From the NCBI GenBank assembly GCA_038215155.1, contig JBBQRF010000004.1, forward strand, positions 1 to 54,683: DNA of 54,683 nt, written 5' to 3'. Both the position numbers and the translations under genes were made by a program. Of this stretch, positions 7,591 through 54,683 are shown piece after piece; position 1 is the first letter of the stretch, and every line of letters begins with the position of its first letter. The notes under the pieces were generated by a model, which was not told where the DNA came from, searched no databases, and was given only the letters and a program-made list of their open reading frames with translations. Origin of the DNA: Minisyncoccia bacterium (GTDB lineage: Bacteria > Patescibacteriota > Minisyncoccia > Phycocordibacterales > CAJBRS01).

Positions 7591-8661
7591 ATGAAAACTA
7601 TACGAGTAGCCATTAATGGAGCAGGCAGAATTGGCAGAGCTTTTTATAAAGTAGCTTCTAAACGACCAGAAATTGAGATAGTTGCGCTCAATGATCTTGG
7701 TGATATAGAGAACATTGCTTATCTTTTAAAATACGACAGTGTCTATGGCCGTAGTGGTTTGAATATTGAGATAAAGAAGAACTTAGAGGTTGAGCTTCTA
7801 AGTGAAGATTCAGCACTTAGAAGCTCAACCTCTAAGTTGGTAATACAGGGAAAGGAAGTGAAATTTCTCAGTCAGAAAGATCCAGCACAACTACCATGGA
7901 AAGATTTAGATATTGATGTGGTGGTGGAGTCAACCGGTTTTTTCACTAGCTTTGAAAAATCAAAAGCCCACTTAGATGCCGGCGCTAAAAGAGTAGTAAT
8001 CAGTGCGCCGGTGAAAGAAGATGCCTCAGCCGGCGCGCCGACAGTATTAATGGGAATAAATGAAGAAGCTCTGAAAAATTCTAAAGTTAGCTCAAATGCT
8101 TCCTGCACTACTAATTCAGCAAGTCCACTCTTGGCTATTTTAGATGAAGCAATTGGTATTGAAAAAGCTATTCTTACTACTGTTCACGGATATACTGCCA
8201 GCCAGTCAATTGTTGATGGTCCAAATAAGAAGGATTGGAAGGAGGGCAGAGCAGCGGCTCAGAATATTGTACCGACTTCCACTGGCTCGGCCATCGCTAC
8301 CGCTAAGGCACTCACTCAATTTGAAGGGAAGTTTGACGGCATTTCCATGCGCGTGCCAGTACCAGCCGGATCTATTGCCGACATTACCTTTATTGCTAAG
8401 CGCCCAACCACAGTAGAAGAAGTTAATTCGGCCCTAGAAAAAGCGGCCAATGATCCACGTTGGCAAAAAGTTTTTGCGGTGATTAAGGATCAAATTGTAT
8501 CTAGCGATATTCTCGGGGACTCCCATGCCGCCATTGCCGATCTGGGATTGACTCGAGTAGTGGATGGTAACTTAGTGAAAGTGCTGTCTTGGTATGACAA
8601 TGAAATGGGATACACCCATTCATTAGTAGAACATGTAATTGAAGCGGGTAAGTATTTATGA
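7591..8661 (+). CDS. gap: Glyceraldehyde-3-phosphate dehydrogenase, type I
   Basis: INGAGRIGR, SNASCTTNS and WYDNEMGY motifs. The start is placed at MKTIRV (7591) by alignment to the family N-terminus; the tracker start at 7573 lies in the promoter. Confidence 0.93.
   Translation: MKTIRVAINGAGRIGRAFYKVASKRPEIEIVALNDLGDIENIAYLLKYDSVYGRSGLNIEIKKNLEVELLSEDSALRSSTSKLVIQGKEVKFLSQKDPAQLPWKDLDIDVVVESTGFFTSFEKSKAHLDAGAKRVVISAPVKEDASAGAPTVLMGINEEALKNSKVSSNASCTTNSASPLLAILDEAIGIEKAILTTVHGYTASQSIVDGPNKKDWKEGRAAAQNIVPTSTGSAIATAKALTQFEGKFDGISMRVPVPAGSIADITFIAKRPTTVEEVNSALEKAANDPRWQKVFAVIKDQIVSSDILGDSHAAIADLGLTRVVDGNLVKVLSWYDNEMGYTHSLVEHVIEAGKYL
7780..7838. repeat. Perfect 25-bp inverted repeat with a 9-nt loop, inside the gap CDS
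   Basis: aacttagaggttgagcttctaagtg-aagattcag-cacttagaagctcaacctctaagtt. It encodes the extra peptide LEVELLSEDSALRSSTSK. Confidence 0.9.
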
Positions 8662-10146: not shown

Positions 10147-11012
10147 TGACTCTAAACGATCAAACTATTTGGGGATTAGAAACCAAGGCGAATGAAATTC
10201 GTCAATCTATTATCGAGATGCTTCTTGAAGCGGGCTCAGGGCACACCGCCGGCCCATTGGGTATGGCAGATATTTTCACTGCACTTTATTTTAAATTACT
10301 TCGGCATGACCCTAAAAATCCTGGGTGGACTGATCGAGATCGAATAGTTCTTTCCAATGGCCACATCTGTCCGATTTTGTATGCTGCCATGGCGCATGCC
10401 GGTTATTTTCCTATAGAAGAATTGAAGACCTTAAGAAAGTTCGGGTCCCGACTCCAAGGCCATCCTCACCGCGAATGGCTACCAGGTCTCGAGACTAGTT
10501 CTGGTCCTTTGGGCTCTGGCTTGTCACAAGCGGTTGGCATGGCCTTGGCCGACAGGATTGATAGCGGGCCAGCTTCAAATCGCTATGTATATGCTCTTCT
10601 TAGTGACGGTGAATTGAATGCAGGAAATATCTGGGAAGGTGCAATGCTCGCCGGCAAAGAGAAACTACACAACCTTATTGCCATTATTGATCGTAATAAT
10701 ATTCAAATTGATGGTTTTACTGAAGATATTATGCCTCTGGAAAATCTTCGCGCTCGTTGGGAATCTTGGAACTGGCATGTGCAAGAGATTGATGGCCACA
10801 ATTTCTCTGAAATTGTGGCCGCCGTCGAACAGGCAAAAGCTATCTTCGAAAAGCCCTCTGTTATCATTGCGCATACCATTCCTGGAAAAGGTGTGAAAGA
10901 ATTTGAGCGTGATTTTCATTGGCATGGTAAGACGCCAAATAAAGAAGAGGCAAAGATGGCATTGAACGAGCTCCGGACGCTCGGTGGAAAAATTAAAAGC
11001 GAACATGAATAA
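10146..11012 (+). CDS. tkt: Transketolase, N-terminal (TPP-binding) subunit
   Basis: SGHTAGPLGMADI and LSDGELNAGNIWE motifs. Split-type transketolase. Confidence 0.9.
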   Translation: MTLNDQTIWGLETKANEIRQSIIEMLLEAGSGHTAGPLGMADIFTALYFKLLRHDPKNPGWTDRDRIVLSNGHICPILYAAMAHAGYFPIEELKTLRKFGSRLQGHPHREWLPGLETSSGPLGSGLSQAVGMALADRIDSGPASNRYVYALLSDGELNAGNIWEGAMLAGKEKLHNLIAIIDRNNIQIDGFTEDIMPLENLRARWESWNWHVQEIDGHNFSEIVAAVEQAKAIFEKPSVIIAHTIPGKGVKEFERDFHWHGKTPNKEEAKMALNELRTLGGKIKSEHE

Positions 11013-11991
11013 TTTAAACCCCAAAATTTTTGCAAAGGATAATAGCGATATTGAGCAAGCGCCAATCCGTAAGGGTTTCGGTGAAGGACTACTTGATGCG
11101 GGTGAGCAGGATGAAAATGTCGTGGGTCTTTGCGCTGATCTGACGGAATCCACACAAATGCACTTATTTAAAGAAAAATTTCCTCATCGCTTTGTGGAAA
11201 TTGGAGTGGCTGAACAAAACTTAGCAACGGTAGCGGCCGGCATGGCCGCCATGGGAAAAGTTCCATTTCTTTCTTCTTATGCCATGTTTAGTCCTGGCCG
11301 AAATTGGGAGCAAATCCGAACTACTATTTGTTACAACAACGCTAATGTAAAGATTGTTGGATCGCATGCGGGAGTCTCTGTAGGGCCTGATGGCGGCAGC
11401 CATCAGGCCCTGGAAGATCTGGCCATTATTCGGGTTTTGCCTCGAATGACCATCATCTCTCCTTGCGATGCAATCGAGGCGCGAAAGGCCACCATTGCAG
11501 CGGCCAAGATGAAAGGCCCGGTTTACCTGCGTCTTGCCCGCGAGAAAACTCCCATCATCACTACTGAAGAAACCGCTTTTGAAATTGGTAAAGCGCAAAT
11601 TTTTTATCAGCCAAAGACTAAAGCCCAGGTAGGAATTATCGCTACGGGAGCACTAGTCTACCAAGCAATTCAAGCGGCCAAGCAATTAGATGATCAGGGC
11701 TTCCCCGCTAAAGTCTTGAACATCTCCACTATTAAACCTCTGGACGAAGAAGCAGTTATCAATTTAGCTAAAGAAAGTGGCGCCATCATTACAGTAGAGG
11801 AGCATCAAATTACCGGCGGTCTTGGTGGGGCAGTTGCAGAATGCTTGGCTAAAAATTACCCAGTACCAATGGAATTTATAGGAGTGAAAGATAAATTCGG
11901 CCAATCAGGAAAACCCTCAGAACTTATCAAACACTACGGTATGGATGCCGAGTCTATTATAGAAGCCGCTCAGCGACTTAGAAATAAGTAA
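11005..11991 (+). CDS. tkt: Transketolase, C-terminal (pyrimidine-binding) subunit
   Basis: FVEIGVAEQNL and GPDGGSHQALEDLA motifs. The ATG at 11005 overlaps the upstream stop (atgaataa). Confidence 0.9.
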   Translation: MNNLNPKIFAKDNSDIEQAPIRKGFGEGLLDAGEQDENVVGLCADLTESTQMHLFKEKFPHRFVEIGVAEQNLATVAAGMAAMGKVPFLSSYAMFSPGRNWEQIRTTICYNNANVKIVGSHAGVSVGPDGGSHQALEDLAIIRVLPRMTIISPCDAIEARKATIAAAKMKGPVYLRLAREKTPIITTEETAFEIGKAQIFYQPKTKAQVGIIATGALVYQAIQAAKQLDDQGFPAKVLNISTIKPLDEEAVINLAKESGAIITVEEHQITGGLGGAVAECLAKNYPVPMEFIGVKDKFGQSGKPSELIKHYGMDAESIIEAAQRLRNK

Positions 11992-12044
11992 ATCTGACCC
12001 GGGTGAATTATCGAAGTCTAACTTCGTTACTATAATCCAGCGGT

Positions 12045-12106
12045 GTTGCGAGCTTGTTGCTTATCCGACTCGCCGAAGGCGACGGCGGGAAGTAACATGC
12101 GAGCGG
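12045..12106. repeat. Conserved structured element, copy 1 (strand unknown)
   Basis: gttgcgagcttg, then a 39-nt imperfect hairpin with a GAAG-type apex, then catgcgagcgg. The same flanks and spacing occur at 54395-54455. Confidence 0.6.
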
Positions 12107-12128
12107 GCCAGCGTGGAAAATTGGTTGT

Positions 12129-13124
12129 TTAAATCTTAGTAGCTTGCCAATCCGCAGGGCGCTTATCCAGCCACTCTTTAATCTTTGCTTCAGAAAGGAG
12201 ACCTCGTTGCGCGCCAATATCTTGAACAACTGACATAGAATTTACTGCACCCCATTCCAGGGCTTCTTGCATGGTTTTTCCTAAGATAAGAGCGCAAGTG
12301 ACGGTTGAAGCAAAAGCATCTCCCGCCCCCGTTCGCTCATATGGGGGTTTTGGGTCTGGATAAGGTGGCATGAACCAAAATTCTTTTCCGTCATAAGCAT
12401 AAGCTCCTTTCGGTCCATCAGTAATGACAACATTTTTAGGACCAAGCCCACTGACAGCAATTAATAATTTTTTAATATCAGTTTCTGATGTATTTAAAAT
12501 TCGGTTCGCTTCGCCCACATTACAGAAAAATAATTCTGATCGCTGATAAATTCTCTGAAGTGCCTCTTTACCAAATTTCATTTGATAAGTACCCGGCTGA
12601 AAACATAGTTTGATTTCCGGATTAGCTTCTAGATAGTCGGCAATTTTTGAATGAAATTCCAAAGAACTTTCTCCAAGCGAACTTAAGTAAAGCCACTTTG
12701 GTTTTCCCACCATCGGCATTTCATATGGGTATTGGAAGTGTTTGATTAAGATGGTGCGCTCATCATGAAACCACAAGACGTAGTGATGATTGGTCTTCAT
12801 TTCCTGATTTACTTTCAGAAAACTAGCGTCAACTAAATTTTGATGAAGACTTTCTAAGCAATCTTTTCCGAGCTGATCATCTCCGACGTTCGAAATAAGT
12901 GCCGATTTTAGACCGACTCGGGCAGCTGAAACGGCAGCATTGGCACTGTTGCCGACGGCATAGATCATCTCGGCAAATTCATAAGGCACTTTGTCCGCAA
13001 AAGAAAGGCAGAGTTTTTCGGACGTATGATTAGCATCCCAGACTTCCTCACCCTCGTTCAGGCGAATAAAAGTATCGACTACAGTATCTCCAATGGCAAT
13101 TAAATCAAAATCTTTAGAATTCAT
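12129..13124 (-). CDS. PfkB-family carbohydrate kinase
   Basis: ERTGAGDAFAS (PfkB signature 2) and an N-terminal GDTVVD-type motif. Confidence 0.8.
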   Translation of the reverse strand: MNSKDFDLIAIGDTVVDTFIRLNEGEEVWDANHTSEKLCLSFADKVPYEFAEMIYAVGNSANAAVSAARVGLKSALISNVGDDQLGKDCLESLHQNLVDASFLKVNQEMKTNHHYVLWFHDERTILIKHFQYPYEMPMVGKPKWLYLSSLGESSLEFHSKIADYLEANPEIKLCFQPGTYQMKFGKEALQRIYQRSELFFCNVGEANRILNTSETDIKKLLIAVSGLGPKNVVITDGPKGAYAYDGKEFWFMPPYPDPKPPYERTGAGDAFASTVTCALILGKTMQEALEWGAVNSMSVVQDIGAQRGLLSEAKIKEWLDKRPADWQATKI

Positions 13125-22510: not shown

Positions 22511-22583
22511 GCCGGAGTAGCTCAGTCGGTAGAGCAATAGTTTTGTAAACTATAGGTCGTCGGTTCAAGCCCGACCTCCGGCT
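22511..22583 (+). tRNA. tRNA-Thr (anticodon UGU), no encoded CCA
   Basis: Hand-folded cloverleaf: acceptor GCCGGAG/CTCCGGC, D arm GCTC-AGTCGGTA-GAGC, anticodon arm ATAGT-TTTGTAA-ACTAT, T arm GTCGG-TTCAAGC-CCGAC. Confidence 0.9.
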
Positions 22584-53155: not shown

Positions 53156-53234
53156 TTTACAAATCTTTCACAACTCTTATAATAATTAAAGGAATGGTCG
53201 ACATTCACATTTGATAGAAAAGATATTTAATAAA

Positions 53235-53549
53235 ATGAACGAACAAGATACACAATTTCTAGATTACGTAGTGAAAGCTCTAGTTGATAATCAGAACGCC
53301 GTTAAAATTAATCGCACTGTCGATGAAATGGGAGTGTTAATGACCCTGTCGGTTGATCCAGCAGATATGGGAAAGGTTATTGGCCGCCTAGGCAATACCG
53401 CTAAAGCAATTCGGACCTTACTACGAGTAGTCGGAATGAAAAATAACGCCCGCGTTAATCTCAAGATCGAGGAACCAGAAGGCGGAATTAAGAAGGAACA
53501 GAGCGCTAGCCGGACTGTCGACGAAGTAATGGAGGATCTTAAGCTTTAA
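53235..53549 (+). CDS. KH-domain RNA-binding protein (YlqC-like)
   Basis: GKVIGRLGNTAKAIRTLL (GxxG KH motif). Conserved position between rpsP and trmD. Confidence 0.8.
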   Translation: MNEQDTQFLDYVVKALVDNQNAVKINRTVDEMGVLMTLSVDPADMGKVIGRLGNTAKAIRTLLRVVGMKNNARVNLKIEEPEGGIKKEQSASRTVDEVMEDLKL

Positions 53550-53641: not shown

Positions 53642-54316
53642 ATGACCTTCCATATCATCACCCTATTTCCAGGAATTTTCGATTCTTATCTGAATGAATC
53701 GATACTTAAACGTGCCCAAAAAGCCAAACTAATTAAGTTTAAATTCTATAATCCTCGTGATTATGTGAAAGTAGAACGAAGTCAAAGAGGGAAGAGCAAG
53801 CCATATTTGAGAGTAGACGACAAACCTTATGGCGGTGGCCCGGGAATGGTAATGCAGGCAGAGCCTTTGATTAAAGCTATTACAAAGGCTCTGTCACGCG
53901 GAACGAAAGATAAATCGCGAATAGAAATTATTTTCCTCGCCCCCCACGGAAAACAATTCGATACAAAATATGCTAAAAGTACTGTTGAAAAATATACTGA
54001 TATTATTTTAATCTGCGGACGATACGAAGGTATCGATGCTCGAGTGCGAAAAATATTTAAAGCAAAAGAAATGACTATTGGCCCATATGTTTTAACCGGT
54101 GGGGAATTGCCAGCTATGATTATGATTGATTCCATGGCGCGTCAAATTGAAGGAGTTTTGGGAAACTTCCAATCTCTAGAAGAAACCAGAATCGCCGGCC
54201 GCGACGTCTACACGCGGCCGGCTTCCTTAACCCATAAATGCAAAGCCTACAAAGTGCCCAAGGTTCTACTCTCCGGCCATCACCAAAAGATTGATAAGTG
54301 GAGGGAGAAAAAATAG
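53642..54316 (+). CDS. trmD: tRNA (guanine37-N1)-methyltransferase
   Basis: ITLFPGIF, CGRYEGIDARV and LTGGELPAM motifs. Confidence 0.92.
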   Translation: MTFHIITLFPGIFDSYLNESILKRAQKAKLIKFKFYNPRDYVKVERSQRGKSKPYLRVDDKPYGGGPGMVMQAEPLIKAITKALSRGTKDKSRIEIIFLAPHGKQFDTKYAKSTVEKYTDIILICGRYEGIDARVRKIFKAKEMTIGPYVLTGGELPAMIMIDSMARQIEGVLGNFQSLEETRIAGRDVYTRPASLTHKCKAYKVPKVLLSGHHQKIDKWREKK

Positions 54317-54394
54317 GTTATCGTACCCCACTACATTTTTTAAACGCCGGCGGGTGGTGTAGGAAATCCAATGCATTTATAGACGAATGAGGCT

Positions 54395-54455
54395 GTTGCG
54401 AGCTTGCCACTTCTTTGACTTGCGAAGGCAACGTCAAAAAGTGGCATGCGAGCGG
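54395..54455. repeat. Conserved structured element, copy 2 (strand unknown)
   Basis: gttgcgagcttg, then a 38-nt hairpin (gccactt...ttgc-gaag-gcaa...aagtggc), then catgcgagcgg. Same architecture as 12045-12106. Confidence 0.6.
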
Positions 54456-54683
54456 ATAGGGATTAGCTACGAGAATGTCTTGATAGCCCTTTCCCCCTCT
54501 TGCGCTGCCATATTTCATGCTACAATAATCCCATAACTCACAAGGGATCAATGAAACGTTTTTTTCTAAATTAACCTTACTTTCTCTAGCTATTTTCCTT
54601 CTTTTCCGCACCCTGGGAAATGAAAACTCTCTTTCACCACGCGAAAAAACCACTCCCACCCCACTAAAGAGGTTAGCTAACAA

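Follow-up and report, generated by a model that had tools for sequence, protein, structure and literature searches.

An orphan family of small dispersed hairpins with an invariant mismatched foot in two genomes of uncultured Paceibacteria

The window analysed here, a stretch of 54,683 nucleotides, is one contig (C4) of the 657-kb genome, in 8 contigs, of a tiny uncultured (Paceibacteria) bacterium (G000), which was compared with two congeners (G001 and G002). Two of its intergenic spaces each contain a copy of a structured unit on the + strand. Copy 1 sits between the stop codon (11991) of a gene encoding the pyrimidine-binding/C-terminal half of transketolase (10984-11991, + strand) and the stop codon (12129) of a convergent gene encoding a PfkB kinase (12129-13124, - strand). 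Copy 2 starts 70 nt past the stop codon (54316) of trmD (53642-54316), in a region that also encodes KhpA (53211-53549). The Pfam assignments of these genes agree with the neighbors named in a first-pass annotation of this DNA (tktC, a convergent pfkB kinase and trmD). The same annotation had placed both copies in 3' intergenic space, which holds in that both follow genes, but a gene on the same strand also starts at 54552, approximately 95 nt downstream of copy 2. Both copies share the 5' flank GTTGCGAGCTTG (12045-12056 in copy 1 and 54395-54406 in copy 2) and the 3' flank CATGCGAGCGG (12096-12106 and 54445-54455), enclosing variable hairpins of 39 nt (12057-12095) and 38 nt (54407-54444), exactly as had been described from the sequence. 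The heptamer TGCGAGC, previously noticed as a direct repeat around the hairpin, is indeed present on both of its sides in the two window copies, and this is true for every copy of the family. The two-flank pattern occurs twice in the window compared to 0.00 expected from 100 dinucleotide-preserving shuffles, no third copy exists in the rest of the 657-kb genome, and outside of the motif the two window loci do not align. Contigs from four DNA runs were compared over the hairpin; those of one run, the probable source, cover it with identical sequence and those of the other three do not cover it.

The unit had been described as 61-62 nt long, but a covariance model (R1) matches about 80 nt in the window, adding an outer 5-bp helix and a bulged G; the matches extend from 12036 to 12116 for copy 1 (81.2 bits) and from 54386 to 54465 for copy 2 (91.3 bits), and across the family the unit length ranges from approximately 75 to 97 nt. 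Independent minimum free energy (MFE) folds give one architecture in every copy. The foot begins at its base with an outer helix of about 5 bp, which reads GUGUU/GACAC in most copies and CUGUU/GAUAG in copy 2, where 54455-54459 pairs with 54393-54397. Above this helix the foot is composed, proceeding inward, of a bulged G on the 3' strand (G54454 in copy 2), a G-C and a C-G pair, a tandem G·A/A·G mismatch, again a G-C and a C-G pair, a U·U mismatch, and a U-A followed by a G-C pair (UG/CA step). Two variable helices follow above the foot, the first of which reads NNNCUU/AAGNNN in three copies; they are separated by a single bulged base on the 5' strand, and between the second one and a short apical helix with its loop a C is bulged on the 3' strand. 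In copy 1 these elements are P2 (UUGCUU/AAGUAA), the 5' bulge, P3, the 3' bulged C, P4 and a GAA loop, and in copy 2 they are P2 (CCACUU/AAGUGG), a 5' bulged C, P3 (UUUGAC/GUCAAA), a 3' bulged C, P4 (UUGC/GCAA) and a GAAG loop. The predicted stability depends on the strand: copy 1 folds with -37.4 kcal/mol on the + strand versus -25.2 kcal/mol on the - strand, copy 2 with -34.7 versus -27.7 kcal/mol, and all copies taken together with -34.7 to -37.4 kcal/mol versus -19.6 to -27.7 kcal/mol for the complement. The good fold is restricted to the + strand because of G·U pairs, of which there are 2-4 per copy, and this one-strand folding argues that the element functions in single-stranded form and with a defined polarity.

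Three further copies are carried by the congener G001, at C5:176744-176812 (+ strand), C5:174672-174740 (- strand) and C6:145352-145409 (- strand), all matching the flank pattern with 0-1 mismatch, so that the family totals five copies (two in G000 and three in G001) with four different hairpins. Of the 23 flank positions all are identical in four copies and 22 in the fifth; the 5' flank is the same in all five, and the only change, C>U (C>T in the DNA) in the 3' flank of the G001 copy a', converts a G-C into a G·U pair and thus keeps the pairing. The interiors, of 39, 38, 46, and 35 nt, are 50-67% identical among copies (54-67% for copy 1 versus the others), and the closest interiors across species, copy 1 and the G001 copy b (67%), compare with 62% for the pair within G000. 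Orthologous genes of G000 and G001 share 67-72% DNA identity. The foot is therefore invariant while the interiors and the neighboring genes diverge, which argues that each foot is under its own purifying selection. Moreover, in an alignment of five sequences, four of them independent, that was fitted to the structure, 88.8% of the cells pair and double changes occur at 10 of 25 pairs; none of 500 shuffles matched the observed pairing values, and with the partners slid by 1-3 columns 35-51% paired, statistics which are weak for so small and model-fitted an alignment but with which the separate MFE folds agree. The first-pass proposal of a selected RNA or single-stranded DNA (ssDNA) structure with compensatory stem changes is thereby borne out, by the three new copies, the pair counts and the strand asymmetry, and further covarying copies do exist in a related genome, G001, their absence having been named as grounds to give the proposal up. 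The element is real and beyond chance, and it is an orphan structured member among the small dispersed hairpin elements.

The distribution of the family is narrow. Among 101 related genomes the flank pattern is present in G000 and G001 alone, and among 401 genomes of the order, searched with up to 3 mismatches, matches with 0-1 mismatch occur again in G000 (two) and G001 (three) alone. Twelve other genomes of the order gave single matches at 2-3 mismatches and the reversed-pattern control gave 11; matches at this level equal the control and are therefore attributed to chance. In 151 relatives the covariance model R1 recovered the same five copies with 70.8-91.3 bits; the best non-members in the 149 other relatives scored 17.4 and 16.7 bits (E 0.56-0.84), and G002 was without a match. 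A sample of the phylum (151 genomes) yielded R1 matches in G000 and none in the 150 others. No decayed copies were seen, neither in the 401 genomes of the order with up to 3 mismatches nor by R1 in the 151 relatives. With exact flanks, 19 stretches were retrieved from genome_contigs, three of which are true; they belong to one Paceibacterota MAG record and are the same three sequences as in G001. Across 185,579 species genomes, likewise searched with exact flanks, no true copy was found beyond the sequences of G000 and G001, and none of 37 stretches from metagenome_contigs was true. In viral_contigs none of the best 12 of at least 120 matches, ranked by interior folding energy and located in DNA of 56-71% GC, was a true copy with full flanks. 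A loose pattern (GCGAGC...GCGAGY, 1 mismatch) gave noise at control level in the three genomes.

That the motif belongs to no known RNA family, as initially stated, is supported by Rfam 15: at the gathering threshold the sole match in the window is a tRNA (22511-22583), and at E<=10 no match to the motif was obtained with copy 1 or in a joint search of the five copies. The 59-position model of the Transposase-1 RNA (RF03014) is covered in full by copy 2, but the score is 17 bits versus a gathering threshold of 42.8 (E = 0.56); membership in this family was rejected as chance, the match having recurred neither on copy 1 nor on the five copies together. Abstracts on structured RNAs and REP elements of Patescibacteria/CPR do not mention the motif. 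Further candidates were set aside. Trans complementarity of either window copy to the rest of the genome is limited to chance-level 10-13-mers; the near-matches at C5:9978 and C1:41518-41550, considered for a guide-RNA function, fall inside metG-like and dnaB coding sequence, and rRNA mimicry was rejected, neither flank occurring in the 16S or 23S regions.

None of the copies is syntenic between G000 and G001, and all five are situated at different loci. The transketolase-PfkB gap measures about 40 nt and is without the unit in G001, it contains an extra gene in G002, and the region past trmD is different in each of the three species. Conversely, the gene order sodA-comEC-rpmB-S2P-rpsL, in which G001 carries the copies a' and a, is kept in G000 with short gaps that are empty at these places. 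Downstream of rpoD, copy b abuts the stop codon in G001, and a hairpin of a different family is located there in G000. Copies a and a' represent an 89-nt unit that is 96.6% identical and occurs in inverted orientation, 2 kb apart, without any flanking DNA in common and without a visible target-site duplication at its borders. The gene contexts are mixed: two copies lie between convergent genes, two to three are upstream of same-strand genes and one, a', is located between the divergent sodA and comEC with no same-strand gene upstream, which argues against the unit being no more than the 3' end of a gene that precedes it. By likeness to G000, copy a' would be placed upstream of the sodA -10 box. 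The species G002 is without the motif although, at the two compared loci, it is closer to G000 (72-76%) than is G001.

Our favored, though tentative, reading of these observations is that of a transcribed hairpin whose foot is read by a trans-acting protein. The unit would be transcribed and would function through one strand, the + strand in the window, with the mismatched foot serving as a docking or cleavage site, and the long upper helix, in which two bulges are kept and any sequence that pairs is tolerated, would merely be a rigid handle. As a hairpin for protein binding or processing within intergenic RNA it would define or protect transcript ends, and its copies would have arisen by relocation or duplication of the unit as a discrete piece. 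Three points of this reading are inferred, namely the RNA (as opposed to ssDNA) nature of the strand, the recognition of the foot by a protein and the effect of the binding. The presence of a trans-acting reader is suggested by the foot, which is frozen in every copy, together with the lack of decayed copies, a lack that also fits a function of each copy better than selfish turnover. RNA is favored because selection acts on each copy individually, because the foot is identical across species, compared to three substitutions between G000 and G001 in a second, repeat-like hairpin family, and because the sole flank change is from G-C to G·U. It is favored also because a -10-like hexamer stands just upstream of four of the five copies, a sign that was judged by eye and is weak, as is the observation that homology between a and a' begins about 7 nt past this hexamer. 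In copy 1 the hexamer is TATAAT (12031-12036, + strand, 8 nt 5' of the flank), a possible -10 box on weak evidence, and copy 2 lacks an acceptable one; consensus scans returned neither a promoter nor a terminator at either window copy. Counting against the RNA reading, bare-unit duplication and non-synteny are typical of mobile DNA and not of ordinary sRNA genes, the gene context is inconsistent, no partner protein was identified, and G·T pairs and tandem G·A mismatches form in ssDNA as well. Weinberg et al. (2017; PMC5737381) describe ssDNA and RNA motifs as hard to separate bioinformatically. As to possible models for protein recognition, the tandem G·A/A·G, which is invariant, flanked by G-C pairs, close to a bulge and set in an otherwise regular helix, resembles kink-turns and their relatives, RNA helices with tandem sheared G·A pairs that are bound by proteins; the unit differs from them in that it is without a 3-nt bulge directly beside the G·A pairs and in that its 2x2 loop is symmetric.

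The RNA reading and that of a non-autonomous mobile ssDNA hairpin of REP/REPIN-like or attC-like type are not separable on these data, and the latter is nearly as likely. In such a hairpin a strand-specific recombinase or an HUH/Y1 transposase would read the foot and the bulges, each TGCGAGC repeat would mark a point of cleavage or joining, and the upper stem would be free cargo. Mobility of this kind is consistent with five copies at different loci and orthologous gaps that lack the unit, with the copying of a/a' as an inverted 89-nt unit without flanking DNA, with the location of all copies in intergenic space that is neutral and in many cases directly past a stop codon, and with the fold being specific to one strand; the arrangement of a variable tip on a conserved foot with extrahelical bases also matches the way in which attC and REP sites are read. 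Y1_Tnp-like (RAYT-like) genes are present in both carriers (one in G000 and four in G001), G000 also carries REP-type palindromes, and G000 and G001, but not G002, have another dispersed hairpin family in common. The single Y1 gene of G002 is a canonical IS605 tnpA adjoining tnpB. The unit shares with REP/REPIN elements the small imperfect intergenic palindrome, the strand-specific hairpin, the conservation of foot and mismatches and the dispersal to unrelated loci, but it occurs in 2-3 copies per genome without decayed relics, as opposed to tens to hundreds of REP elements per genome. Its interior is 33-50% diverged on a foot that is invariant even across species, and such deep divergence of interiors on identical feet contrasts with the whole-length similarity expected from recent transposition. 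REP/REPIN elements have a conserved GTAG-type tetranucleotide at the 5' foot; the foot of the unit lacks this and reads GTGTTGCGAGC or CTGTTGCGAGC. No copy adjoins any of the five Y1_Tnp-like genes of G000 and G001, and the one of G000 is tied to a different, 21-bp palindrome. Ends of IS200/IS605 elements were likewise rejected, G000 and G001 having no TnpB (PF07282) and no Y1 gene between or beside the copies. Integron attC sites are folded single-stranded recombination sites with RYYYAAC ... GTTRRRY cores. With these the unit has in common short imperfectly pairing ends, an unpaired spacer, extrahelical bases, a variable terminal hairpin, the reading of one strand, and the size, but its ends are GTGTTGCGAGC ... 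GCGAGCGGACAC rather than the attC cores, and its copies are solitary beside core genes; neither an integron integrase nor a cassette array is present, the single PF00589 gene in each of G000 and G001 being of the Xer type. A hairpin-less joined foot, which would represent an empty site, gave matches at control level in the three genomes, which, like the borders of a/a' without target-site duplication, speaks against mobility. Since the defining features of REP and attC elements that were tested are lacking, the unit is filed under neither family. The first-pass annotation had proposed a REP-like element, a small RNA or a protein-binding site; of these a classical REP element disagrees with the copy number, the missing GTAG head and the missing RAYT linkage, and a duplex DNA site is unlikely in view of the spacing and the one-strand fold, the remaining proposals being those carried forward here.

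The duplex site, in which two TGCGAGC half-sites would be bound by a regulator with the hairpin being incidental, accounts for the exact direct heptamer repeat in every copy, but the repeats are spaced variably (47, 50, 51, and 58 bp) and so do not stay in helical phase, neither the compensatory changes nor the G·U asymmetry makes sense for duplex DNA, and the neighboring genes have no common function, so we consider it highly improbable. A purely cis-acting 3'-end structure without a dedicated partner, either a factor-dependent terminator or a block to 3' exonucleases, fares better and is still unlikely. It would suit the four of five copies that follow a same-strand gene by approximately 45-160 nt, the two between convergent genes and the stability of the hairpins (-34.7 to -37.4 kcal/mol); it is at odds with copy a', and a stability hairpin needs no 23 invariant and partly mismatched bases. 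The ordinary terminators of G000, a genome that was scanned for folds over the 116.7 kb outside ORFs of at least 150 aa, are perfect GC hairpins followed by T-runs. An intrinsic (rho-independent) terminator was rejected altogether: neither window copy has a U-tract after the hairpin, and the terminator scan is empty at both. The least probable of the explanations weighed takes the flanks for conserved codons of a small peptide. Short ORFs do overlap the window copies (49 aa on the + and 35 aa on the - strand at copy 2, 73 aa on the - strand at copy 1), but stop positions and peptide lengths differ between copies, and interiors of differing length put the flanks into different relative frames in most copies; there is therefore no common reading frame, and we reject the peptide.

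To our knowledge, almost no non-coding elements beyond the universal RNAs have been described in CPR/Patescibacteria. Signs of selection are clear in the motif, whose foot is mismatched yet invariant, whose stems change in a compensatory manner and whose fold is confined to one strand, and it matches no catalogued family. A bolder proposal, which we hold to be rather unlikely, is that the unit may be the part recognized by a structure-reading system, so far undescribed, of ultra-small CPR bacteria, either as a new class of protein-binding or processing RNA that is identified entirely by its mismatched foot (tandem G·A, U·U, and bulged G) or as an attC-like folded ssDNA site at which a housekeeping-type recombinase or a Y1 enzyme moves tiny hairpin cassettes. 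Both options, if true, would account for a foot that stays unchanged between species of only about 70% identity, with the remainder of the unit drifting. Should a protein recognize the foot, the motif would offer a small and well-defined probe for RNA- or ssDNA-binding activity in unculturable organisms, and if the unit is mobile, hairpin elements persist at 2-3 copies in genomes of 0.65 Mb. The practical weight is limited, with five known copies in two uncultured species and a putative function that is read from sequence.

The second hairpin family mentioned above shows the reverse conservation pattern in the same two genomes. It consists of an invariant 27-nt apex (TAAGACTTGGCCTAGCGGCCCGGAGCG) on long, perfect and variable stems and is located 20-120 nt after gene ends. 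In G000 there are eight copies, all outside of the window (C1:15876, C1:173932, C3:77894, C3:94926, C3:97163, C5:5169, C6:13025, and C7:15263), and in G001 there are nine, the apex of which is altered by the compensatory change from GGCC/GGCC to GGGC/GCCC. None of 39 other relatives, G002 included, carries this family, and it has no Rfam match. It resembles the motif in being intergenic, hairpin-forming and of the same two-species distribution; it differs by its 8-9 copies and by its invariant apex on variable stems, the motif being reversed in this respect and of minimal copy number. Correia/CREE, ERIC, BOX, and RUP elements are transcribed palindromic repeats and MITEs. They are intergenic, hairpin-forming and lineage-specific like the motif, but exist in many copies and are conserved over the whole length or at the apex, whereas the motif has few copies and a conserved foot. 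A third hairpin family of G000 has two copies, at C1:26537-26608 (+ strand) and C2:60105-60176 (- strand), with the invariant apex GAGAATTCGGGCTTCCGACCTCTC on different stems, and the hairpin of its C1 copy has no Rfam match.

Palindromes of another kind accompany the Y1_Tnp/RAYT-like gene of G000 (C1:153481-154134). This gene contains three in-frame copies of the perfect 21-bp palindrome CTTAGAGGCTSAGCCTCTAAG, which are read as LRGSASKL or SLEAEPLS. Two more palindromes of this type, one of them a variant, are positioned just upstream of the gene (C1:154238; locus L116/L253), and the exact palindromes of the gene occur nowhere else in the G000 genome. In the window, positions 7780-7838 form a 59-nt palindrome, located inside gap and built from a variant of the 21-bp unit (CTTAGAGGTTGAGCTTCTAAG). 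In G001 a long-range 14-bp inverted repeat, GCATTAGTATTTC ... GAAATACTAATGC, encloses about 60 nt between the S2P protease gene and copy a (L001:1330-1480), immediately upstream of the latter, and may be another structured element. Moreover, a G000 locus on contig C5 (L120; C5:4875-8489) encodes a 334-aa reverse transcriptase beside a 120-aa ORF; the latter looks like an Avd-like four-helix bundle and the locus like the core of a diversity-generating retroelement. A second reverse transcriptase of G000 is encoded at C5:41596-42288, both being on a contig other than that of the window and unlinked to the motif. Finally, the last 167 nt of the window (54517-54683) are paralogous to the promoter region and the start of a large surface-protein-like gene on C1 that adjoins the RAYT-like gene, which probably explains the break of the contig at this point. 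The paralogous copy on C4 differs by one base in a T-run, leading to a stop after 7 codons (MKRFFLN*), and could be a pseudogene or an assembly error.
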